Below, one piece after another: positions 20,649 through 55,932 of a stretch of 64,000 nt of DNA (position 1 is its first letter; the number at the start of each line of letters is the position of its first letter). Source of the DNA: Hyphomicrobiales bacterium (GTDB lineage: Bacteria; Pseudomonadota; Alphaproteobacteria; Rhizobiales; Beijerinckiaceae). The position numbers and the translations under genes are program-made. The DNA is taken from NCBI GenBank assembly GCA_031428455.1, contig JANPPJ010000098.1, forward strand, positions 9,304 to 73,303. The letters are read 5' to 3'. Under the pieces are notes generated by a model that was not told the origin of the DNA, ran no database searches, and saw nothing but the letters and a program-made list of their open reading frames with translations.

Positions 20649-21134
20649 ATGAGCGACGCCGCCAGCTTCCGACGGCGCCTCGTCTCGGTCCTTCTCGATG
20701 AAACGTCCATTGGCCGGGGCAATCTGGATCAGGAGCACGAGCGGCTCGTCGCGATCTACGATCTTGTTGAGATCAATTCATTCGCGCTGCCGGGTCACGA
20801 CGGCGGGCCCTATGCGCTGCACGTCTCGCTTCACGACAAGAAATTGTGCTTTGACGTGCGGGCGCAAGATGGCGAGCCGATCATCCGGCACATCATGTCG
20901 CTGACGCCCTTCCGCAGGCTGCTGAAGGATTATTTCCTTGTCTGCGAGAGTTATTACGCAGCCATCCGCACCGCGACGCCCGCGCAGATCGAGGCCATCG
21001 ACATGGGGCGGCGCGGACTGCACAATGAAGGCGCGACGCTTCTGTCCGAGCGCCTTGATGGCAAGATCGAGTGCGATTTCGACACCTCGCGGCGCTTGTT
21101 CACCCTCATCACCGCTCTGCACTGGAAAGGCTGA
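20649..21134 (+). CDS. UPF0262 family protein
   Basis: [36 protein letters not shown]. Conserved partner gene downstream of hisD in alphaproteobacteria. Confidence 0.8.
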
Positions 21135-21165
21135 AAGCCATGAACCGGGGCGGGGGAGGGGTTTC

Positions 21166-21630
21166 ATGACGGCCCCGACGCGCCGGCCGCAATCACTGTT
21201 GTTCGCCTGCACGACAAACACTGTGCGCTCCCCCATGGCGGAGGGACTTGCGAAGCATCTCTTCGGGCGTGAGATCTTCATTGCGTCCGCTGGCGTGCGG
21301 CCTATCGAGCCCGATCACTTCGCCATCGCAGTCATGGACGAGATCGGCATCGACATCTCAAAGCACAAGCCGCACACGTTTGCGGAGCTTGAAGACGACA
21401 GCTTCGACGTCATCATCACGCTGTCGCCCGAGGCCCACCACACCGCGCTGGAATACACGCGCACATCAGCGGTTGAAGTGATCTACTGGCCCACCATCGA
21501 CGCCACCGCAGTGCAAGGCTCGCGCGAGCAGATGATGGACGCCTACCGCGGCGTGCGTGACACCCTGCAGAAGCGCATCAAGGAATACCTGGATTGGCGC
21601 CCGATGATGTCGGTGAGCGGCGGGGAGTAA
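21166..21630 (+). CDS. low-molecular-weight phosphatase family protein (LMW-PTP/ArsC-like)
   Basis: LLFACTTNTVRSPMAEGL contains the CX5R(S) P-loop. 154 aa from the internal ATG. Confidence 0.8.
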   Translation: MTAPTRRPQSLLFACTTNTVRSPMAEGLAKHLFGREIFIASAGVRPIEPDHFAIAVMDEIGIDISKHKPHTFAELEDDSFDVIITLSPEAHHTALEYTRTSAVEVIYWPTIDATAVQGSREQMMDAYRGVRDTLQKRIKEYLDWRPMMSVSGGE

Positions 21631-21635
21631 AGTTT

Positions 21636-22787
21636 CTAATCTTCGAAAAGTGACATTAGTTCATTAGCGAAATAAAATTTCTGCCGACCGGAATATGGTG
21701 ACTTCTTTACAATGCCAAGATCCTCTAGTTTTTGAACATTATTTTTTGCAGCAGTGTAGCTAGTTCCAGTTAACTCCCTAACACTACTGACTGTAACATA
21801 AAGTTTTTCGAATAGCTTATCAATTATGGTAAGTAGTAGGGCTGAGGATCGAGCTTGCTGGCATTTCGCTCTATAGCTCTCTTGGAGTTCCATCACCTTA
21901 TGAATTGTGACGATTGTCTTTTCGCACGAGATCGTAAGGCCCTTCAGAAAGAAGAGAACCCAATCTTCCCATTTGCTCTGTCTCGACACGTTCAACATCA
22001 AGTCCACGTATTCGTCTCGATGGTCTTCGAAATATTGGCTCATGTACAGGAGCGGTTGATCCATTAAATTACGAGAGCGTAGTATTAACGGTATCAATAT
22101 GCGGCCAACTCTGCCGTTTCCGTCTGGGAAGGGATGGATCGTTTCAAATTGGTAGTGGAAGAGGGCTACAAACACCAACGGGGGTAACCCTGCCATATCT
22201 TCTAGGTTAATAAATGTCTCCAAGTCAGCCATGCAATCCAAATGCATAGGTGGCGGAGGAGGGTTAAAACGTGATTTTGCTACGTCTTTGGACTTACCAA
22301 TAAAATTCTGTTCTTTGCGATATTCTCCGGGTTCAAAGTAGCCCGTTCGGCTCTTTGGTAGCCGCTTGAGTAATGTCTTATGTATTTCCTGTATTAGGCG
22401 ATTCGAGACAGGAATGTCAGACAATAGTTCGATGCCACGTTGTAGTGCTCGTACATAGTTATAGACTTCTAGGGTGTCGGTGGTTTGACGGGCTTCGTCA
22501 ACTCCTGACTCTAGAATCAACAATTCCGGAAGGGACGTGTAAGTGCCTTCGATATTAGACGAGGCAATAGCTTCCCGTCGCTGCAACGGTCTGATCAATA
22601 GGTAGGGGTTAGGGAGGTAGCGTCCAATTCCGCGAAGTTCCCCAAATTTCTGGTCAGCTTCGGAAAGGGCCTGCTGAACAATGGAAAAGTCGAAGCTTGG
22701 GGGTAGTGAGGCAGGTATAAAAGCTTTCTGTCCAAGAATCGTGGCTACAAGCCGACCGGACGGGGTTGAGAAGCTAGCGGGGTCCAT
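21636..22787 (-). CDS. Fic family protein (class II: N-terminal inhibitory motif, Fic core, C-terminal winged-helix-like region)
   Basis: HPFPDGNGRVGR at 22101-22136 is the canonical HxFx(D/E)GNGRxxR. SSNIEG at 22545-22562 fits the inhibitory [ST]xxxE[GN] motif. AT-rich ORF: hand counts of two 60-nt lines gave 22-23 G+C. Confidence 0.9.
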   Translation of the reverse strand: MDPASFSTPSGRLVATILGQKAFIPASLPPSFDFSIVQQALSEADQKFGELRGIGRYLPNPYLLIRPLQRREAIASSNIEGTYTSLPELLILESGVDEARQTTDTLEVYNYVRALQRGIELLSDIPVSNRLIQEIHKTLLKRLPKSRTGYFEPGEYRKEQNFIGKSKDVAKSRFNPPPPPMHLDCMADLETFINLEDMAGLPPLVFVALFHYQFETIHPFPDGNGRVGRILIPLILRSRNLMDQPLLYMSQYFEDHRDEYVDLMLNVSRQSKWEDWVLFFLKGLTISCEKTIVTIHKVMELQESYRAKCQQARSSALLLTIIDKLFEKLYVTVSSVRELTGTSYTAAKNNVQKLEDLGIVKKSPYSGRQKFYFANELMSLFED

Positions 22788-22801
22788 CTCAATTTACCTG
22801 G

Positions 22802-22848
22802 GTGTGATACAGCGCACGTAATCACACTTTATGGCTCGAAAAGTGTGA
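22802..22848. promoter_or_regulatory. two overlapping palindromes (operator-like) upstream of fic
   Basis: GTGTGAT(22802-08)-N12-ATCACAC(22821-27) and TCACACTT(22822-29)-N11-AAGTGTGA(22841-48). They lie 15-61 nt upstream of the fic ATG (22787). Confidence 0.4.
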
Positions 22849-22889
22849 CTCAACCATTTAAATGACGACTGCTAGCCATTTTTTTGTCT

Positions 22890-24167
22890 TCACATCCCCT
22901 CGGGCCGACCCGCCACGGTCACCAGCAGCGTCTTGCCGTCAAACAAACGCCTCGTCACGCGGCGCACGTCTTCCATCGTCACGGCGGCGATCATGTCGTT
23001 GCGCTTGTCGAGATACTCGACCGGCAAACCATCCGTCTGCATGCTGACGAGATTGCCCGCAATCTTCGTCGATGTGTCGAAGCGCAGCACGTAGGAGCCG
23101 ATGAGATACTTCTTGGCCTTGTCGAGTTCATCGACCGTCGGCCCGTCGGCCACCAGCTTGGCGATCTCTTCTTCGATGACCGAGAGCGATTCCGCGGCGC
23201 GCTCGTTCTTGGTTGATGTGCCGCCCGAGAACAGCGCTGCGTGATCGTAGGCGCCAAGCTGCGAATGCACGGAATACGCAAGACCGCGTTTCTCGCGCAC
23301 TTCCTTGAACAGGCGCGCTGAAAAAACGCCGCCGCCCAGAATGTGGTTGACCACCACGGCGATCATGAAATCCGCATCATCGCGCGCAATGCCCGGCAGG
23401 CCAAAGCGGATTGTTGACTGCGGCACATCCACATCAAGCACGCGCTTCTTGCCAGCCAGCGGCACAACGTCGGCCACGGGCGTCAGTTTGGCCTGCGCAG
23501 GCAGCGCGGCGAATGTCTTGTCCACCAGCGCAGCAAGGCGGGTCGCGTCAATGGCGCCCACCGCGCCGATCTTGAGGTTGCCGCGGGCCAGCGTCGCGCC
23601 GTGCATGGCGGCAATGTCCGCCCGCGTGATCGTGGGCACGGATTCAAGCGTGCCCTGCGAGGGGCGCCCATAGGGATGGTTGGGGAATGCGTCTTCGCGG
23701 AAAGCGCGGGCGGCGACCCGGTTCGGGTCTTTCACTTCATGCTTGAGCCCGGCGACGATTTGCGCGCGCACGCGCTCCATGGCGTCTTCATCAAGACGGG
23801 GCTCGCAAACCGCAAGACGCAGCAATTCAAAGGCGGGGTCGATGTTGCGCGACAGGGTTTTCAGCTGGCCATGAAAATTGTCATGCTCTGCCGAAAACGC
23901 GATCTCGACCGCAAGGTCATCCATGGCGCGATGGAAAGCATCAGCATCATAATCGCCTGCGCCTTCATCCAGCAGGCTTGCAAGCATGCCCGACACGCCC
24001 GGCTTGTCGGCCGGGTCTTGCGCCGCGCCAGCCTTGAAGGCGAAGTCAAACGCGACGAGCGGCACGGCGTAATCTTCGACCAGCCACACTTCTATGCCGC
24101 GAGGCGTAACCACCTTCTGCACGGTCGCGGCGCGCGAGAGCGCAACTTTTTCAATTACGGCTGTCAT
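22890..24167 (-). CDS. M16 family peptidase, non-catalytic-type subunit
   Basis: Pitrilysin-like fold (…LGAYDHAALFSGGTSTKNERAAESLSVIEEEI…) without an HxxEH motif. Paired with the upstream catalytic M16 gene. Confidence 0.85.
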   Translation of the reverse strand: MTAVIEKVALSRAATVQKVVTPRGIEVWLVEDYAVPLVAFDFAFKAGAAQDPADKPGVSGMLASLLDEGAGDYDADAFHRAMDDLAVEIAFSAEHDNFHGQLKTLSRNIDPAFELLRLAVCEPRLDEDAMERVRAQIVAGLKHEVKDPNRVAARAFREDAFPNHPYGRPSQGTLESVPTITRADIAAMHGATLARGNLKIGAVGAIDATRLAALVDKTFAALPAQAKLTPVADVVPLAGKKRVLDVDVPQSTIRFGLPGIARDDADFMIAVVVNHILGGGVFSARLFKEVREKRGLAYSVHSQLGAYDHAALFSGGTSTKNERAAESLSVIEEEIAKLVADGPTVDELDKAKKYLIGSYVLRFDTSTKIAGNLVSMQTDGLPVEYLDKRNDMIAAVTMEDVRRVTRRLFDGKTLLVTVAGRPEGM

Positions 24168-31538: not shown

Positions 31539-32465
31539 ATGGAGTGTTCATTGCAGGCGGGGACGAAAAAGACCGAACGCCATCACTGGTGGCCCGAGGC
31601 CGTTTCGAATTTCTGGTGCGGCGAAGATGGCTGCGTAAGCTGGCTATGGCCATGTGGTAAAGTGGTGCGAACAAAGCCGGGAAATTTGGGGGTCATTACA
31701 AACGGTCACTACGTTAAGCTTGGGCGACATCGTGGAGAGGAAACCGCTTGGGATTTCAACTTCGAGCCGGTCTTTGGACGCGTGGACTCGGCCTTCCCTC
31801 ACGTCATCAATTTTCTTAAAGAAGTATGCCGGGAAGCAATAACAGGTCGTCCACAAACATATGATTTCATCCCCGTTGATGTTGCCGAAGAAAGCATCAC
31901 TTCTATTATCGACGGCATTATCTCATTAGCTGTTCGCATACCGATGCACCGAGAATCAGCAGCGTCAGTCGCTCGCCAGCTTCGCCCGCAACTGTCAGGT
32001 GCCGAAGCAGAGAGAATAATCACTGCAACTATAATTCACAGCTTCGAAAGTGCTCGTCGCGCAATTGGCACAAAGGGAAAGATTTGTTTGCTATTTTCAC
32101 CTTACCGCGAGTTCATATACGGCGATGGTTTTTTCAGCAACATACGAGCACCAGTTCAATTATTTCATCGTGCGAGAATGTTGATTCCTTTGACCCCGGA
32201 TATAGCGGTGCTGTTTGTGCAGCCTGAACGGTATATGGAAAAGCCACGAATTTGCGTTCGAGCGCTAAATTCAAACGAAACAGACGATCTAAACTTAGCA
32301 GTGCAGGTTTACTCGCGAAACATGATTTTTTTCCGATCGGAGTTGCCCACAAGGCATCCCGCTTTCCAAGAGCAACGGCACTTAGAGTTCGCGGATAGGG
32401 ACAACAACATTGAAAAAATCATAGAAAGAGTGCCTGGCGTACTCAGGCCGTCTTGGCCGTTTTGA
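31539..32465 (+). CDS. hypothetical protein, possibly DUF4238-like (AT-rich islet)
   Basis: 308-aa ORF; one sampled 60-nt line had 25 G+C against much GC-richer flanks. The N-terminal RHHWWPEAVSNFW resembles the HH-aromatic-x-P-x-F-x-L-x-x-F signature I associate with DUF4238. This is unverified. Confidence 0.6.
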   Translation: MECSLQAGTKKTERHHWWPEAVSNFWCGEDGCVSWLWPCGKVVRTKPGNLGVITNGHYVKLGRHRGEETAWDFNFEPVFGRVDSAFPHVINFLKEVCREAITGRPQTYDFIPVDVAEESITSIIDGIISLAVRIPMHRESAASVARQLRPQLSGAEAERIITATIIHSFESARRAIGTKGKICLLFSPYREFIYGDGFFSNIRAPVQLFHRARMLIPLTPDIAVLFVQPERYMEKPRICVRALNSNETDDLNLAVQVYSRNMIFFRSELPTRHPAFQEQRHLEFADRDNNIEKIIERVPGVLRPSWPF

Positions 32466-32483
32466 TTGCTGCACCTGCCCGCG

Positions 32484-33407
32484 TCACCAAACCAGCGAGG
32501 AGATAGCGGCTTTCGGACGCACCCCTGCCTCGCGCACCATGGCGCGCATCGCGTCCACATCCAGCGGGCCCGGCGCGCCCGGTTGCGCCTGCGGATGCAA
32601 TTCGTCGCGGTGGATGCCGGAGGTCACGAACAGTGCGTCGAGACCTCTGTCGCAGGCGCCTTTGACGTCCGTGCGGATGGCGTCGCCAATCGCGACAACG
32701 CGAGACATGTCAACGGGGCGGCCAAGGCGCGCAGCGGCCATCTCAAGCGCGCGGTCATAAATTGGGGCGAACGGCTTGCCGGCCTGCCGCACAAGTCCGC
32801 CCATCTGCTCATACCGTTCGGCCACAGCGCCCGCGCACCAGAGCATCTGGTCGCCCACATGCACCACAAGGTCCGGGTTGGCGCAGATGAACTCCATGCC
32901 GCGTGCGCGCATCTTCTCAAGTTCGGGGATGTAATGCTCAGGGGCATGATTATCGTCGAACAGGCCCGTGCAGAGCACATACTCGGCTTCATCCAGCCCG
33001 ACGCTTGGCGGGCGATGGCCGATCTGCTGCTCCATGATGGAGAAGAACGTCAGATCACGCGGCGGACCGATGTGATAGACTGGCTTCATTCCATGGGCCG
33101 CCACGAAGTTCAGCGTCACGTCGCCGGACGTCACAACTTCGTCAAAGCAGTCGCGCGGCGCGCCAAGCAGGTCGAGTTGCTCGAGAATGGGCGGAAACGG
33201 ACGCGGCGCGTTCGTCACCAGCACGACGACCCCGCCCTTGTCGCGAAACTTCCGCAGCGCTGCGCATGCTTGCGGAAAATGCTCGCGCCCGTTGTGGACG
33301 ACGCCCCAGATGTCGGAGAGCACCACGTCATAGCTATCGGCAATTTCCGAGAAGCCGGACAAGACAGGCAGGTCGCCGCCCGCGTCGAGATGGGGGATGT
33401 TGGACAT
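32484..33407 (-). CDS. HAD-superfamily class IIA hydrolase (TIGR01459-like)
   Basis: VVLSDIWGVVHNG (DxxG-type motif I), VLVTNAPR, and IGDAIRTDVKGA near the C terminus. Confidence 0.8.
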   Translation of the reverse strand: MSNIPHLDAGGDLPVLSGFSEIADSYDVVLSDIWGVVHNGREHFPQACAALRKFRDKGGVVVLVTNAPRPFPPILEQLDLLGAPRDCFDEVVTSGDVTLNFVAAHGMKPVYHIGPPRDLTFFSIMEQQIGHRPPSVGLDEAEYVLCTGLFDDNHAPEHYIPELEKMRARGMEFICANPDLVVHVGDQMLWCAGAVAERYEQMGGLVRQAGKPFAPIYDRALEMAAARLGRPVDMSRVVAIGDAIRTDVKGACDRGLDALFVTSGIHRDELHPQAQPGAPGPLDVDAMRAMVREAGVRPKAAISSLVW

Positions 33408-46787: not shown

Positions 46788-46855
46788 GGGCAAAGTTTTG
46801 AGGGGAGGGCTGGCGCCGTCATGGTCGGCGAAGGCCGACCATCCACGACAGGCCA

Positions 46856-47190
46856 CACGCGCCAACTAGTGGGCCGTCATAGCCGGACTTGATCCGGCTA
46901 TCCAGGCGTGCAGCTTGACGACTGACGCATGCATCTGGATGCGCGGATCAAGTCCGCGCATGACGGATTTGGGCCTCTTCCCTCTCTCGTGTGCGGGAGA
47001 AGTGAGAGACTTTGACGGGTTACACGCGCCAACTAGTGGGCCGTCATAGCCGGACTTGATCCGGCTATCCAAGGCGTACGGCTTAACGACTGACGCATGC
47101 ATCTGGATGCGCGGGTCAAGTCCGCGCATGACGGATTTGGGCATCTTCCCTCTCCCGTGCACGGGAGAAGGGAAAGTTTCCCGCGCACCT
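46856..47190 (+). repeat. two tandem ~167-bp units of a composite REP-like element (three hairpins per unit)
   Basis: The unit starts CACGCGCCAACTAGTGGGCCGTCAT at 46856 and again at 47023. Each unit has hairpins AGCCGGACTTGATCCGGCT, GCGCGGATCAAGTCCGCGC and CCCTCTC(C/T)CGTG..CGGGAGA. A related mini-hairpin ATGGTCGGC-GAAG-GCCGACCAT lies at 46821-46842. Confidence 0.85.
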
Positions 47191-47266
47191 GTAACGCTGC
47201 CTTTAAACTTCCGTGTCAGACCAACTAGCGATCTAGGACCAGTCACTTTGTCCAGCAAGCGCGACC

Positions 47267-47935
47267 ATGAAGCAAGTCTATATCCTTACGCCGTTACCAA
47301 GATCGGCTAAACCGCCGATGTTGGCCGTAATTGTGCTTTGGATGGGGATCGTTTTCTCGCCGTTTGTAGCTTTCACCGTGAATGGGCGTGTTGATGGTTC
47401 AAACTGGTTGCCGGCTATTTTCACTGCATGCTTCTGTCTTGCAGGCTTGGTTTTCTTGCATGTCCGCGCTGCGCGCGTCTTTCATCAGCTTCCTTCGGAT
47501 GTTCGCGCAGAGTATAATGAAGGCAGATTGTTGCATCCGCTGCCGCGCGAAAATTGCGAGACAAATCCAATCGAGTTTGCACTGGACAAGTCTGGCAAGT
47601 CGGTCGTCGGCTTGACGACGAGCGGCGCCTGGTTCGCGCCTGTGGCAGTCGCTGGCACATCCTGGAACAAAGTTCTTGAGATGGCGGATATCAACTCGAA
47701 GGCCCATCTGGCGGGGGGTGATCACTTGCCAACTCATGCCATTGGGTGGGCGCAGATAGCTGAATGGCAAGTTCGTGACGACAGGGACGGGCCCGCTTAC
47801 TACCGCATGACGCTATTGGACGGCGGCTACATAAATTTGAAACGCCCAAGCGATCCCGCCAAGGAGCAACTTGTCCTGGACTATGTTCGCGCAATTGGTG
47901 GCCGGCCTGTTCGCTTGTTTTGCGACGTGGTCTGA
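47267..47935 (+). CDS. hypothetical membrane protein (2 N-terminal TM helices + soluble domain)
   Basis: 222-aa ORF with lower GC than its flanks (one sampled line had 31/60 G+C). No recognisable motif and no clear SD. Confidence 0.55.
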   Translation: MKQVYILTPLPRSAKPPMLAVIVLWMGIVFSPFVAFTVNGRVDGSNWLPAIFTACFCLAGLVFLHVRAARVFHQLPSDVRAEYNEGRLLHPLPRENCETNPIEFALDKSGKSVVGLTTSGAWFAPVAVAGTSWNKVLEMADINSKAHLAGGDHLPTHAIGWAQIAEWQVRDDRDGPAYYRMTLLDGGYINLKRPSDPAKEQLVLDYVRAIGGRPVRLFCDVV

Positions 47936-47946
47936 ACCGGCGCAAA

Positions 47947-48062
47947 TTACACGCTCAAACGACGGGCCGTCATAGCCGGACTTGATCCGGCTATCCAAGC
48001 GTGCAGCTTAACGACTAACGCATGCGTCTGGATGCGCGGATCAAGTCCGCGCATGACGTAGT
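47947..48062 (+). repeat. third copy of the REP-like element (hairpins 1 and 2 only)
   Basis: TTACACGC..GGGCCGTCATAGCCGGACTTGATCCGGCTATCCAAGCGTGCAGCTTAACGACTAACGCATGCGTCTGGATGCGCGGATCAAGTCCGCGCATGAC, in the same orientation as the units at 46856-47190. Confidence 0.85.
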
Positions 48063-48161
48063 TGGAGGTGGATTATTCACGCGTCCAATCCGCAGCGGCA
48101 GGCCCGGTAGTAAGACTTTGCCTGCTGTGGATGCCGGCCTTCGCCAACATGACGCGCCCCC

Positions 48162-50491: not shown

Positions 50492-51465
50492 GCGACGCAC
50501 CCAACGCGGCGCTGACGCTCGCCGTCCCCTCCAAGGGCCGCCTGCAGGAAAACGCCTTCAACTTCTTCGCCCGCGCAGGGCTGAAACTCATGCAGAGTCG
50601 CGGCGCGCGCGATTATCGCGGCGTGCTGCGCGAGATCCCCGGCGTCGAGGTGGCGTTTCTGTCCGCCTCCGAAATCGTCTCGCAGCTGGCCACTGGCGCG
50701 GCGCATCTTGGCGTCACTGGCGAAGATCTCGTGCGCGAAACCATGGCCGACGCTGATCAGAAGGTTGAGTTGCTCACGCCGCTGGGCTTTGGCCACGCCA
50801 ACGTGGTTGTCGCTGTGCCGCAGGCCTGGATTGATGTGCGCACAATGGCGGACCTTGAGGACGTGGCCGCAGCCTTCCACGCGCGGCGCGGCCAGCGCAT
50901 GCGCGTCGCCACAAAATACGTGAACCTGACGCGCCGCTTCTTCGCGCAGATGGGCGTCAGTGATTACCGCATCGTTGAATCTCTGGGCGCCACCGAGGGC
51001 GCGCCCGCCGCAGGACAAGCGGAACTGATCGTCGACATCACCACCACGGGCGCCACGCTGGAAGCCAACGCGCTCAAGGTGCTGGATGATGGAATCATGC
51101 TGCGCTCGCAGGCCAATCTCGTCGCCTCCGTCAACGCGACGTGGAGCCCCCAAACATTATCGCTGGCCCGCGCCATTCTTTCGCGCATCGCGGCTGAAGA
51201 AGAAGCTCGCACCACACGCAGCGTGCGCGCCCGCGTTGCTGATGTGGCGGAGACGGCCCGGCTTGCGGGCGAGACGTTCGGCGCTCGCGCGTTGATGGGC
51301 GTCGATGGTCCCGCGCTTGAACTTGTTTGTCCCGCGGACGAAATAGCGCCACTGGCGGACTGGCTCATCGCGCGCGGCGCGCAACACGTCACGGTGTCGT
51401 CGCTCGATTACGTCTTCAGCGCGCATAACCCGCTGTATGAGAAGCTCGCCGCCCGCGTGGCGTGA
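50488..51465 (+). CDS. hisG: ATP phosphoribosyltransferase (with C-terminal HisG_C-like extension)
   Basis: [24 protein letters not shown], and [16 protein letters not shown] (PRPP loop). 325 aa, including a ~100-aa C-terminal domain. Confidence 0.9.
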
Positions 51466-51508
51466 AGCGGCGGGCCTCGGGCTGGCGAACGCGAATACAC
51501 CCAACGCT

Positions 51509-51538
51509 GTCATGCGCGGGCTTGACCCGCGCATCCAG
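51509..51538 (-). repeat. isolated REP hairpin 2, inverted orientation
   Basis: GTCATGCGCGGGCTTGACCCGCGCATCCAG is the reverse complement of the CTGGATGCGCGG.TCAAG.CCGCGCATGAC module. Confidence 0.75.
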
Positions 51539-51549
51539 ACGCTTCGCGA

Positions 51550-51603
51550 ATGATCGGCAAAGCTGGCCCTTGGCTTCAATGGCTCGACGCCGGAAGCCGC
51601 TGG
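51550..51603 (+). pseudogene. decayed fragment of the GH3 (NagZ-like) gene 5' region
   Basis: ATGATCGGCAAAGCTGGCCCTTGGCTTCAATGGCTCGACGCCGGAAGCCGCTGG aligns to 52978-53033 of the intact gene (ATGATCGGCGAAATGCTGGTTCTTGGCTTCAACGGCTCGACGCCGGAAGCGCCTGG), with a 2-nt deletion and several substitutions. Confidence 0.6.
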
Positions 51604-51663
51604 GGTTTTAGAAGCGCCAACCGCAGAGGCGGCCCCGCACTTGCTCTTGGCCCGCTGACTGAT

Positions 51664-52545
51664 TCAGTTCGGGTTCGGGTAAATGCTTATTCCTATCTCG
51701 CAGGATGAGGTCCGACCTTGTCGGGGCGAAATATAGGTACAAGTGGTTTCGTACCCGTAGCGACGGCTGAAGTGGTTAATTGGTTCACGCTCAGCTCTCC
51801 GAGTACATTCCTGCAAATGTTTTATGATGGTTGGCTTTATGTTTGGGCGGACACCAACAAGGTTCGCGATGTCTTCATAAAAGCTGGCTGGCGGTTTGCA
51901 GGATTTGTAGCTAGCTGTGACATTGATGATTGGTTTAAGCCAAGAGCAGCCAAAGCTTCCATCGCTAATGTCCTCTCCGACATAAGGGAACTTGAAAGCA
52001 ACGATTTCGCTGGTTTGCCTCAAAAGCGTCAGGCCATGAGTATTCGCAAGCCGGACAATTTCGGGGAGACATTGAGAGATCGAGCCCCGCCTTTGCAGGG
52101 ATTCTTCTCCTCCTAGCGCGTAAGCACCCGGAACACCAACTAACGTTCGGCCCAGATACTCACACCGAATATTCCCATTCGGCAAGGCATCGAAATTCTC
52201 AATACGAGAGAATTTTAGTGCCTCTCGCTCCGTTGGCGTAAGTTCTTGGAGTACCGTGTTTCTCTGGAGCTCTTGTCTGTTCACCAGAGCGCGACATGCC
52301 ATTAAGGCATTCGGAGCAACGCCTTCTGACCTAATCATTTTGAAGACAGCAGAAGGATTGATTTCTAGGGCCGCCTTAACCTCTATATTTAGCTCGGCTC
52401 TTCGTATCGTTATGCAGATGCTGCTTACAGGGTTCCGGGTGCAAGCATTATTCTTCTTAACGAGTTCGTCTGCAGAAGGGGCTGCACGGAAAATTGATTC
52501 TATTGAGACTAGAAAAATAAAAACAACCGTCTTTACGTGTTTCAC
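51664..52545 (-). CDS. secreted cysteine-rich hypothetical protein (AT-rich islet)
   Basis: 293 aa. Signal-like N terminus MKHVKTVVFIFLVSIESIFRAAP. 10 Cys. One sampled 60-nt line had 26 G+C. No recognisable family. Confidence 0.65.
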   Translation of the reverse strand: MKHVKTVVFIFLVSIESIFRAAPSADELVKKNNACTRNPVSSICITIRRAELNIEVKAALEINPSAVFKMIRSEGVAPNALMACRALVNRQELQRNTVLQELTPTEREALKFSRIENFDALPNGNIRCEYLGRTLVGVPGAYALGGEESLQRRGSISQCLPEIVRLANTHGLTLLRQTSEIVAFKFPYVGEDISDGSFGCSWLKPIINVTASYKSCKPPASFYEDIANLVGVRPNIKPTIIKHLQECTRRAEREPINHFSRRYGYETTCTYISPRQGRTSSCEIGISIYPNPN

Positions 52546-52662
52546 GTTTTCGTCCCAAAGCTATAATTTCGCTCGCCGGACGAATATTCAAAATCAGCTA
52601 AAATACGTCTGACGATGTAGGGGTCGAATGTAAGCGCAGGAGCCCGTTTGAAGTCAAGGCAG

Positions 52663-52740
52663 GTGACGGTAGCCGCGCTCGATTACGTCTTCAGCGCGCA
52701 TAATCCGCTTTACGAGAAGCTCGCCGCCCGCGTAGCGTAG
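52663..52740 (+). pseudogene. diverged relic of the last 25 codons + stop of hisG
   Basis: Translates [25 protein letters not shown], versus [25 protein letters not shown] at 51388-51465. 67/78 nt are identical by hand alignment. The differences are mostly synonymous third positions and the frame and stop are preserved. Confidence 0.85.
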
Positions 52741-52758
52741 CCACCTCCAGCCGTCACT

Positions 52759-52789
52759 CCTGGATACGCGGGTCGAGCCCGCGTATGAC
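52759..52789 (+). repeat. isolated REP hairpin 2 copy
   Basis: CCTGGATACGCGGGTCGAGCCCGCGTATGAC, in the same orientation as the 46.9-48.1 kb copies. Confidence 0.7.
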
Positions 52790-52887
52790 GAGCCTCTGCG
52801 AGCGCCCCGCATCCTCACGCCTTGCTTGCGCCCCAACCCTTGGGCAGATTGCGCGCGCTGGCATGAGCCGCGTGCAGGAGCCGATTC

Positions 52888-53973
52888 GTGACGACAACCA
52901 TTTCCCGCCGCATGGTGCTGGCTGGCGCGATCGCCGCCCCTTACGTCACGAAGGCTTCTGCCGCGGCTGACGAGAACATGATCGGCGAAATGCTGGTTCT
53001 TGGCTTCAACGGCTCGACGCCGGAAGCGCCTGGCGTGCAGGGCCTTGCGCGACATCTGAATGCGGGGCGCGTCGGCGGCGTGTGCTTTCTTGGCTACAAC
53101 TCCCGCACGCGCGCAGGCATCGAGGGCATCACGAAAGTGTTCCAGTCGAGTGCGTCGCGCACAAAGCCGCTAATCAGCGTCGATCAGGAAGGCGGCGCCG
53201 TGCAGCGCCTTGGCGCGCGCTCAGGGTATGACGCTATTCCCACGGCGCAGGCGCTCGCAACGCGCGGCTCGCCCGAGGAGGCCTATGGCGTGTATCAGCG
53301 CATGGCGCGCACGTTGCGGGCGGCAGGGTTCAATCTCAATCTCGCGCCCGTGGTTGATCTCGGTTTTGAGCCCCGGAACCCCGTCATTGCGAAATGGGGC
53401 CGCGCCTATGGTTCCGACGGCGCAACCGTCGCGCGCTTCGCAACGGAGTTTGTAAAAAGCCATCGCGCTGAGCGTGTGCTGACAGCGGTGAAGCACTTCC
53501 CCGGCCACGGCTCAACGCTTGGCGACAGCCATGAGCGGCCAATTGATCTGACCCCAACATGGCGTCCGGATGAGCTGGAGCCTTTCCGTCGCATGGCGCG
53601 GGCCAGCGCAATCGACATCGTCATGACGGGCCATCTTGCGCATGCCAAACTGACAGGCGGCGAGCCAGCCACGTTGTCGCGCACGGCTATTGAAGGCGTG
53701 CTGCGCCGCGATATTGGCTTTCAGGGCGCGGTGATGACCGACGATCTCGATATGGCGGCGATCCGCTCCAGCTTCGCGCTGCCAGACGCTGTCGTGCGCG
53801 CCATTGCGGCGGGCAACGACATCATCCTGCTGTCTAACTCTCTGAAGCCGGATCCAAATCTGCCGGTCGTTTTGATCGCAGCTGTGAAGGATGCGGCCGC
53901 ATCAGGCCGCATTCCCAAGGGTCGCATCGAACAGTCTGTCGAGCGGATCACGCGCCTCAAGGCGCGGGTTTGA
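52888..53973 (+). CDS. glycoside hydrolase family 3 N-terminal-domain protein (NagZ-like beta-N-acetylhexosaminidase), exported
   Basis: GTG start. Signal MTTTISRRMVLAGAIAAPYVTKASAAA. Contains ISVDQEGGAVQRL, NLAPVVDL, KHFPGHG and VMTDDLDM motifs. Confidence 0.8.
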   Translation: MTTTISRRMVLAGAIAAPYVTKASAAADENMIGEMLVLGFNGSTPEAPGVQGLARHLNAGRVGGVCFLGYNSRTRAGIEGITKVFQSSASRTKPLISVDQEGGAVQRLGARSGYDAIPTAQALATRGSPEEAYGVYQRMARTLRAAGFNLNLAPVVDLGFEPRNPVIAKWGRAYGSDGATVARFATEFVKSHRAERVLTAVKHFPGHGSTLGDSHERPIDLTPTWRPDELEPFRRMARASAIDIVMTGHLAHAKLTGGEPATLSRTAIEGVLRRDIGFQGAVMTDDLDMAAIRSSFALPDAVVRAIAAGNDIILLSNSLKPDPNLPVVLIAAVKDAAASGRIPKGRIEQSVERITRLKARV

Positions 53974-53989: not shown

Positions 53990-54469
53990 TTAACTTTCCA
54001 GCCCGCCCATGTGCTTTTGCGCATAAAGCTGCACGCCGATGGTCTTGATCAGATTGATCTGCGTTTCGAGAAAGTCGATGTGATGTTCCTCGTCGCTCGC
54101 AATCTGCTCGAACAGCATCTTTGACACGCGGTCGTTGACGCTGTCGCAATACTGGGCGGCTTCAAGATAAAGTGCGCGCGCCTCAATTTCATAGGAGAGA
54201 TCGGATTCCATGATCTCCTCGATGGTCTGTCCGATACGCAGCGGGTCGAGGTTCTGCATGTTCGGAAAGCCGTCGAGGAAAAGAATGCGGTCGACGAATT
54301 TGTCCGCGTGGCCCATTTCTTCGATGGATTCTGCGCGCCACTGCTTGCCGAGATCTTTGAAGCCCCAGTTGTCGAGCAGGCGATAGTGCAGCCAGTACTG
54401 GTTGATGGCCGTCAATTCGCTCCGCAGCCCGCGGTTCATGTACTCGAGGACTTTTGGATCGCCGCGCAT
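53990..54469 (-). CDS. bfr: bacterioferritin
   Basis: MRGDPKVLEYMNRGLRSELTAINQYWLHYRLLDNWGFKDLGKQWRAESIEEMGHADKFVDRILFLDG. 159 aa from the internal ATG. Confidence 0.95.
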   Translation of the reverse strand: MRGDPKVLEYMNRGLRSELTAINQYWLHYRLLDNWGFKDLGKQWRAESIEEMGHADKFVDRILFLDGFPNMQNLDPLRIGQTIEEIMESDLSYEIEARALYLEAAQYCDSVNDRVSKMLFEQIASDEEHHIDFLETQINLIKTIGVQLYAQKHMGGLES

Positions 54470-54570
54470 GTGTAACTCCAGAGGCGTAAGGGAAGAAACC
54501 TGAGCTGCGCCACAGCGGCAGCTGCGCTTAAAACAAACCACCGGACGAATGGTTCAGTGCCGAGACAAAT

Positions 54571-54801
54571 TTACGCAGCGCCGGCCAAGACAGCTTCCGG
54601 CAGGGCTTCGTCTGACAGGGCGACTGAGCAGCAAACGCCAGCGTCCTTCATGATGCTGCGAATGGAGCGCGCGCACCGCCCGCACTGGGGCGAACAGCCG
54701 AGGCAGCCGTACACTTCGCTCACCTTGCGGGGCGCATGCGTGTTTTCTACGACGTCGCGCACTTGTTTGTCTGACAGGATGTTGCAGGAACAGACAATCA
54801 T
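54571..54801 (-). CDS. bfd: bacterioferritin-associated ferredoxin
   Basis: MIVCSCNILSDKQVRDVV...CLGCSPQCGRCARSI gives the four-Cys [2Fe-2S] Bfd pattern. It lies upstream of bfr. Confidence 0.85.
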   Translation of the reverse strand: MIVCSCNILSDKQVRDVVENTHAPRKVSEVYGCLGCSPQCGRCARSIRSIMKDAGVCCSVALSDEALPEAVLAGAA

Positions 54802-55443: not shown

Positions 55444-55932
55444 ATGCAGAGCCTGCGCATCATTCTCGCCCTCGTCGTATCCGGCCCGTTGCTTGTCGAG
55501 CCTGTGTTCGCGCAGCAATCGGTGCAGGACACCGCGCGGGCCCGCGCCAAGCAGATCGAGCAGCAGCGCGAGGAAGAGCGCAAGCGTAGCCTGGAAAAGC
55601 GCTTTCCGGTGGGGATGAGATGGGTGCTGGAAGATATGGGCGGGAAGCGCCCGCCAGCTGGCGTTGACGCTGCGCTCCGCATTGACGCGTCCTACCGCGC
55701 GGCTGGATCTGCTGGCTGCAATACATTCTCGTCGGCGATGTATCCCGCGAAGGAACAGACGCTGATGGCGAGTACGCCCGCGCTGACGCGCCGTACGTGC
55801 CCGGCGCCGGTCATGGCGTTTGAGCGGGCGTTCCTTCAGGCGCTTTATTCGCGCCCGAAGTGGGATCAGGTCGGCGATACGTTGATCCTCAAGTCGCGCG
55901 CGGGCGTTCTGCGCTTTCGTCGGGGTCTCTGA
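55444..55932 (+). CDS. META domain protein (HslJ-like), exported
   Basis: Signal peptide MQSLRIILALVVSGPLLVEPVFAQ. GSAGCNTFSSAMY...RRTCPAPVMAFERAFLQAL fits the META/DUF306 pattern. Confidence 0.7.
   Translation: MQSLRIILALVVSGPLLVEPVFAQQSVQDTARARAKQIEQQREEERKRSLEKRFPVGMRWVLEDMGGKRPPAGVDAALRIDASYRAAGSAGCNTFSSAMYPAKEQTLMASTPALTRRTCPAPVMAFERAFLQALYSRPKWDQVGDTLILKSRAGVLRFRRGL

Follow-up and report, generated by a model that had tools for sequence, protein, structure and literature searches.

Campbell-type insertion-duplication is the single-crossover integration of circular DNA that carries a chromosomal fragment, as in suicide-plasmid mutagenesis or the integration of episomes. Some integrase-mediated islands replace the 3' end of the gene they target with a copy of their own; the target can be a tRNA or tmRNA gene and in some cases a protein gene. 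Homology-facilitated illegitimate recombination (HFIR) was described in E. coli (PMC3240628), and orphaned 3' ends in the effector-immunity arrays of Rhs, contact-dependent inhibition (CDI) and type VI secretion (T6SS) systems have been attributed to HFIR (PMC5361080). In Streptococcus pneumoniae, transformation-induced merodiploidy comprises duplications of 100-900 kb with insertion sequence (IS) copies at their borders (PMC3784515). Here, an AT-rich islet between hisG and a GH3 (NagZ-like) gene is analysed in a 64,000-nt stretch of DNA (the window) from a Hyphomicrobiales bacterium (contig JANPPJ010000098.1, positions 9,304 to 73,303). The islet harbours one gene, designated X, and is flanked on either side by pieces of the same hisG-GH3 junction. 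Tentatively, and with somewhat less than even confidence, we favour the view that an X cassette with its own flanking non-coding DNA entered a single-copy hisG-GH3 junction by Campbell-type insertion-duplication. All coordinates are positions in the window, and 'relic' denotes the second hisG tail located to the right of the islet.

The islet with its duplicated junction is real. Nine contigs (L001-L004, L107, L109, L110, L118 and L119), which originate from at least seven independent assemblies, span one or both islet borders with 99.8-100% identity, so that an assembly artefact can be rejected. From left to right, the order is hisG tail, GH3 piece, X, hisG tail, GH3 piece, all in direct orientation, and both live flanking genes are intact. 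A repeat search detected the hisG tail pair (D1, 51385-51463 and 52660-52738) over 79 nt with 87% identity and the GH3 pair (D4, 51559-51606 and 52989-53036) over 48 nt with 85% identity; pairwise alignment recovered both. The repeat-insert-repeat topology put forward in the original prediction is hence confirmed, with both repeat pairs in the same order and orientation on each side of the islet. Such an order requires an insertion-duplication. A single crossover with a circle carrying X and a junction copy, as had also been proposed, formally yields it, and a Campbell-type crossover is the most economical single event for the observed order.

The locus shares with Campbell-type integrants an insert between direct repeats of one contiguous chromosomal segment, intact flanking genes and reversibility by recombination between the repeats. 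It differs in that the insert is one gene without replicon, marker or transfer function, and in that the repeats are 85-87% identical and each lack a different internal part; furthermore, no circle was seen. With HFIR and the orphaned 3' ends it has in common a stranded in-frame 3' gene end beside acquired DNA, one putatively homologous and one abrupt border, and a relative as putative donor. Here, however, a housekeeping biosynthetic gene and its neighbour are affected, each of which has left a stranded piece, and the logic of polymorphic toxins does not apply. Integrase-mediated islands also display a direct repeat of a gene 3' end and keep the gene intact, whereas in the present case no integrase is found, the repeat extends into the downstream gene (57-nt internal GH3 piece) and the islet measures 1 kb. 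As in the merodiploids of S. pneumoniae, where uptake of DNA that is partly repeated in the chromosome leads to a duplication with an intact and an interrupted copy, both kinds of copy are present, but the duplication here is smaller than 0.5 kb. The characteristics of an IS or transposon are missing: The locus has neither a transposase nor terminal inverted repeats, and the duplicated pieces are 57-81 nt long.

Relatives were found by protein look-ups. They comprise 17 islet-free contigs from four lineages: group I (L086, L104, L105), group II (L097-L103) and two further lineages (L087-L089 and L093-L096). HisG of the close relatives is 96-98% identical at the protein and 88-89% at the nucleotide level. 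All 17 contigs show the order hisZ-hisG-GH3-(bfr-bfd)-small open reading frame (ORF)-META-ABC with a single, islet-free hisG-GH3 junction. This indicates that the hisG-GH3 adjacency is ancestral and the window carries an insertion; in none of these relatives are both junction copies already there. The closest hisG in a species-representative genome collection (L006, 88% aa identity) is directly followed by the META-domain gene, which in the window is located at 55444-55932. That the segment is single-copy with the same neighbours in all insert-free contigs supports the Campbell-type event.

This event would have started from a circular DNA that combined X with an adjacent junction copy, which was derived from a very close relative and reached from about hisG codon 300 to GH3 codon 49 and including the spacer of a doublet of REP palindromes. 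One Campbell-type crossover with the chromosomal junction would have placed a junction copy on each side of X and left hisG and GH3 intact. Subsequently, about 176-230 nt would have been deleted from the redundant left copy, comprising the second REP as well as the promoter and codons 1-30 of GH3, and two frameshifts would have arisen there; from the right copy, about 55 nt with the body of the first REP would have been lost. In this scenario, the circle, the origin from a relative and the sequence in which DNA was deleted are inferred; Table 1 gives the present layout.

In the present layout, the start-to-start spacing is 1275 for the hisG tail pair and 1430 for the GH3 pair. In the left copy, hisG tail and GH3 piece are hence about 155 nt closer together. 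The left copy lacks most of the GH3 upstream region (52790-52887), which in all relatives contains a conserved box (GCCTTGCTTGCGC...CCTTGGGCA.ATTGCGCG). The left GH3 piece, C1, is a 57-nt fragment without promoter or the first 30 codons. It is plainly decaying: A local alignment with 52978-53036 has two 1-nt gaps, which render C1 frameshifted. In place of the GCG CCT of the live GH3 gene, it retains GCC GCT, in agreement with group II. The first 12 nt or so past the right-hand palindrome (REP2) have a weak, non-significant counterpart after the left-hand one (REP1; P=0.13). No homology extends past the repeat edges in shuffle-controlled alignments (P=0.58 and 0.28), and the borders at 51606/51607 and 52659/52660 are abrupt.

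Table 1. Features of the hisG-GH3 junction and the islet in the window.
Feature	Position	Strand	Basis
hisG, live, intact, 325 aa	50488-51465	+	Pfam HisG and TIGR00070; length as in relatives
A1, left copy of hisG tail (last 81 nt of live hisG)	51385-51465	+	D1 repeat
Post-stop spacer, left copy; first ~30 nt group II-like	51466-51508	+	Global alignment with shuffles
REP1, REP-family palindrome, putative left half of split doublet	51509-51538	+	Family copies; first REP of relatives
C1, decayed GH3 codons 31-49 with two 1-nt deletions	51550-51606	+	Local alignment to 52978-53036; D4 repeat
Islet proper, 1,053 bp, GC 48.8%	51607-52659	none	Composition; comparison with loci of relatives
X, 293-aa ORFan, N-terminal signal-like segment, 10 Cys	51664-52545	-	ORF and 54% identical homolog P0002
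A2, in-frame relic: last 25 hisG codons and stop TAG	52660-52740	+	D1 repeat; codon analysis
Spacer past relic stop; resembles group I post-stop region and first bases of group I REP1	52741-52759	+	Alignment
REP2, REP-family palindrome, putative right half of doublet	52760-52789	-	96.7% identical to second REP of L104/L105
GH3 upstream region with conserved box	52790-52887	+	Alignment to relatives
GH3 / NagZ-like, live, intact, 361 aa	52888-53973	+	Pfam Glyco_hydro_3 and NF003740
C2, right copy of GH3 piece, inside live GH3	52978-53036	+	Alignment to C1

The lineage of the window, which is uncultured and Hyphomicrobiales/Beijerinckiaceae-like, diverges by about 11-12% at the nucleotide level from its nearest sampled relatives. 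Together with groups I and II it forms a near-trichotomy, and strings of informative sites reveal a mosaic signal throughout. Such mosaicism among the three closest lineages indicates that homologous exchange between relatives is frequent. It is general, and no recombination breakpoint specific to the hisG tail was found. The 5' third of GH3 (52888-53290) is 86-89% identical to group II and 80-84% to group I, while the rest of the gene is equidistant or slightly nearer to group I; the ABC transporter gene contains patches of the same kind. These patches, too, point to frequent homologous exchange among the three lineages. A bfr-bfd pair (53990-54801) separates GH3 from the small ORF in the window, in L087-L089 and in L093-L096. 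The two closest groups (L086, L097-L102) lack this pair, which makes the neighbourhood variable at more than one point.

An inverted REP pair with a short spacer is the architecture of a REPIN (PMC3116915, PMC3337134), and REPs serve as insertion targets for some IS elements (PMC1525189). Both hairpins at the junction belong to one REP family and have opposite orientations. As expected for REPs, the family consists of a short imperfect palindrome in multiple copies (five in the 64-kb window versus zero expected), and inverted pairs with a short spacer occur. At the junction of group I, an intact inverted pair is found with the two REPs 28 nt apart, and REP1 of the window matches the first REP of these three contigs in position and orientation. 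In the window, REP1 lies to the left and REP2 to the right of the islet, 1.2 kb apart. The two hairpins, which the original prediction had described as an inverted REP, are better read as halves of a REPIN-like doublet that would have been split by the insertion. A simple REP inversion was rejected, since the intact doublet in L086, L104 and L105 favours the split. The likeness to REPINs lies in the spacing of about 28-30 nt at the junction of the relatives and in three doublets present elsewhere in the window (46871-48065). Compared with REP-targeted IS insertions there is a difference: The DNA inserted here is no IS. The junction is very labile in its REP content, with no REP in two lineages, one in L090, and a degenerate copy or two copies in group II. 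The contigs L090-L092 end at a REP equivalent to REP2.

A second islet of lower GC content is located at 46855-48065. It contains an ORF (47267-47935, 222 aa, GC 54%) without family matches, and the islet (47.2-47.95 kb) lies between direct repeats of a REP-doublet unit of about 100-145 nt. The units map to 46871-46972, 47039-47140 and 47964-48065, and the third is 94% identical to the first. In L088, only about 195 nt separate the cupin and ExoD genes at the corresponding site, and L006 is without the segment. With its direct REP-doublet repeats this islet follows the same repeat-insert-repeat logic, which is in line with the Campbell-type reading of the hisG-GH3 islet. Further low-GC patches (49-56% GC in 1-kb windows) at 21000-23000 and 32000-33000 may be other islets.

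Between the hisG-GH3 repeats, the original prediction had noted about 1 kb of approximately 43% GC. Size and low GC content were correct; the GC content of the 1,053 bp is, however, 48.8%, and 42.5% is reached by the 200-nt minima. X and its homolog at the same locus of another species had been overlooked. The composition of the islet is foreign-looking: GC at third codon positions (GC3) is 48% in X versus 72-77% in the flanking genes, in support of an insertion. Besides this strain's own contigs, no fetched relative locus is similar to the islet. X is convergent with hisG and divergent from GH3, and its N-terminus is a hydrophobic, signal-peptide-like segment. A homolog (P0002) on the Logan contig L005 shares 54% identity and 73% similarity over 283 residues, with the cysteines kept. 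Since a homolog is conserved at this level, X is a real gene. Two protein matches among 5.8 billion proteins and only six profile matches among 1.84 billion representatives were obtained, by which X has essentially one clear homolog and is almost an orphan. It has no match in Pfam, NCBIfam, PHROG, PADLOC or PDB sequences nor in plasmids, phages, IMG/VR or JGI metagenome contigs, and its AlphaFold model (2-sequence alignment) is poor (pLDDT 54). The two longest antisense ORFs of the islet lack matches in Pfam, NCBIfam and PHROG, and no ORF other than X has a homolog. Neither ORFs nor family scans revealed a trace of a recombinase, transposase or integrase in the 1,053 bp. Inverted repeats at the islet ends and a tRNA or Rfam family near the islet were not found either. 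That transposase, integrase, terminal inverted repeats and tRNA are all missing is as the Campbell-type event would have it. A consensus scan for promoters and terminators yielded no promoter-like and one terminator-like site (inside GH3), which does not exceed chance expectation.

Contig L005 (1,217 nt) begins within GH3 and ends within the hisG tail. The hisG tail is found 43 nt past the stop codon of the X homolog, and the GH3 N-terminus (ISRRGFIAGALAAPYVT) 180 nt upstream of its start. With the arrangement hisG> <X GH3>, the gene occupies in a second species the same locus in the same orientation as in the window, without relics. Here, the cassette takes the place of everything between hisG and GH3, the conserved box upstream of GH3 included. 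Both X genes have a GC content of about 48-50% in genomes of about 62-65%. A third member of the X family and the next-nearest one, P0123 (E=4e-27, L106 1-1180), is located in an AT-rich islet (45% GC) with GC-rich flanks, where it adjoins a truncated PIN/VapC-like ORF.

Codon-aligned, live tail (51388-51465) and relic (52663-52740) are identical at 67 of 78 positions. The relic differs by nine substitutions in 25 sense codons and by TAG instead of TGA: Six codons are altered purely synonymously, and two adjacent Ser codons are replaced by Ala codons, these two counts being as given in the original prediction. Six of the nine substitutions are unique to the relic, four of them synonymous; the remaining three, likewise synonymous, correspond to variants that segregate in the live alleles of group I and group II. 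Across the 81-nt relic there is neither an indel nor an internal stop. Both Ser-to-Ala replacements fall on the two positions at which the HisG tail varies most, and live HisG proteins with VTVAAL exist. In a simulation of neutral decay, at most two replacements and no stop were obtained with P=0.04-0.14 for six changes (conservative count) and with P=0.001-0.017 for nine changes. The live copy combines TGA with a group II-like spacer (P=0.003 against L100, P=0.71 against group I), the relic TAG with a group I-like spacer (P=0.012), which argues for more than point mutation alone. Synonymous bias, replacements at hypervariable positions and the regional mosaicism agree with a junction copy that would have come from a relative. 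In the HisG tail, a His/Arg polymorphism (SAHNPLY versus SARNPLY) was observed at 51424-51426 and 52699-52701 of the window and in the tails of L097 and L100. The His codon is CAT in both window copies and CAC in some group II alleles; elsewhere, CGC (Arg) is present.

A number of observations weigh against the Campbell-type event with a relative as donor. Among the sequences sampled, the 63-nt core of the relic is nearest to the tail of its own genome (93.7%; L006 reaches 92.7%, group II 90.5% and group I 89.5%), and both copies share bases absent from all relatives (CAT and GAG, as well as CTT in the GH3 piece). The donor would hence be an unsampled sister lineage, or the duplication would have occurred in situ. 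Six changes are unique to the relic and none to the live copy, which is expected if the relic evolved faster after an in-situ duplication, and five of its nine differences fall into the first 13 nt. No donor allele of the relic was found: None of the 120 best HisG proteins joins AAL with SAH, and a degenerate-codon scan of JGI metagenomes for the relic peptide found nothing. Among the assembled contigs, neither circle nor donor nor excision product was seen; all nine border-crossing contigs carry the islet, and shorter contigs with the GH3 gene of this strain end before reaching it. A circle of about 1.4 kb without replication or transfer function is an awkward vehicle, at least two later deletions must be assumed, and the arrangement in L005 cannot be converted into that of the window by integration of a circle. 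The original claim that the relic is a xenolog is accordingly divided: Synonymous bias, replacements at variable sites and the differing stop codon and spacer speak for it, whereas the nearest match to the own tail, the shared derived bases and the missing donor speak against it. The own hisG is indeed the closest sampled match, with a divergence biased towards synonymous changes. A xenologous origin, judged from these comparisons, is only suggestive.

The alternative that draws most on these points is an in-situ duplication, in which a break in the junction was repaired with a local duplication of about 380-450 bp and X was captured at the joint. Variants are a long target duplication or a small tandem duplication, after which the redundant pieces decay neutrally and the live copies drift synonymously. 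We regard this as possible, albeit rather unlikely. Here, the two copies would be mutually closest in their cores (93.7% and 96.6%) and have derived bases in common, as they do, and the long branch of the relic next to the short branch of the live copy, the concentration of differences at the fragment edges and the decay of C1 (two frameshifts, loss of about 176 nt) would follow. The divergence from the nearest sampled relatives leaves time enough. What such a duplication explains less well is the synonymous bias of a relic without indel or stop (P between 0.001 and 0.14, depending on the count used) and the restriction of both amino acid changes to hypervariable positions. Moreover, the differing stop codons and non-homologous post-stop spacers demand extra indels, and it would be a coincidence for a whole functional gene to be captured precisely at the joint.

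Alternatively, two steps could have been involved. X would first have disrupted GH3 (codon 49/50) or hisG (codon about 300), and a linear fragment from a relative would then have repaired the damage by HFIR, with a crossover of one end in the intact part of the gene and an illegitimate join of the other end, which lies in the neighbouring gene, beside X. The relics would be the stranded native piece and the surplus end of the imported fragment. Ordinary uptake of linear DNA gives the same order without a circle in a region that is a recombination mosaic, and it accounts for the abrupt, homology-free edges at 51606/51607 and 52659/52660 as well as for the allelic differences in stop codon and spacer and the synonymous bias; both HFIR and orphaned 3' gene ends are known from other systems (PMC5361080, PMC3240628). 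This rescue is nevertheless unlikely. It needs two rare events at one spot and a later deletion, no disrupted intermediate is known, the hisG tail has no specific breakpoint, and patches elsewhere are at least as pronounced as the group II bias of the GH3 5' third.

A presence of X at this locus since the ancestor of the genus, followed by repeated loss, is very unlikely; the window would then show the old and L005 the cleaned-up state. The same locus and orientation in two species would be explained, and if X were lost precisely through recombination of the flanking repeats, clean junctions would remain. However, at least four independent losses would be needed, the X proteins are 54% identical versus 84-90% for the flanking proteins, and the low GC content of both X genes argues against long residence. 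Least probable of all is a site-specific integration at the hisG 3' end or in the REP-doublet spacer by a recombinase since lost, with the relic as displaced or element-borne att repeat: The X homolog in the same intergenic region of a second species, an insertion between the two REPs of a doublet intact in relatives and the known role of REPs as IS targets (PMC1525189) would fit, but no recombinase gene or fragment and no terminal repeats exist in the 1,053 bp, att-site logic does not predict duplication of an internal GH3 piece, the L005 cassette has different borders and replaces the whole intergenic region, and the third family member lies beside an unrelated truncated vapC gene. The related suggestion in the original prediction, a 3'-end-replacing element that had lost its integrase, fails likewise, as it would duplicate the hisG tail but not the GH3 piece, and no integrase remnant is found.

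Returning to the Campbell-type event, a donor of the L005 type was considered and rejected, as integration of such a circle gives the wrong order (hisG-X-GH3 piece-hisG relic). With this donor excluded, the two species show independent events or different stages. It is a doubtful extension that X genes might be integrase-less cassettes that travel with a copy of their landing junction among related alphaproteobacteria, enter by single-crossover homologous recombination and leave by recombination between the repeats. The hisG-GH3 REP-doublet junction would then be a recurrent landing pad, used in two species.

All models lead to one outcome for the neighbours: As the duplication retains the hisG 3' end together with promoter and 5' end of GH3, the insertion is harmless to both. 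The locus is a scar of recombination, well resolved but fairly ordinary, that surrounds a rare orphan gene. It draws attention to a very rare family of predicted secreted, cysteine-rich proteins that appears as AT-rich islets in GC-rich genomes, to a hisG-GH3 junction that received a member of this family in two species, and to the association of REP doublets with islets in this genome. The current understanding of gene transfer is unchanged; what is added is a well-resolved natural case in which a foreign gene was placed between two housekeeping genes without a dedicated mobility enzyme, with undamaged neighbours and a scar that is still legible.

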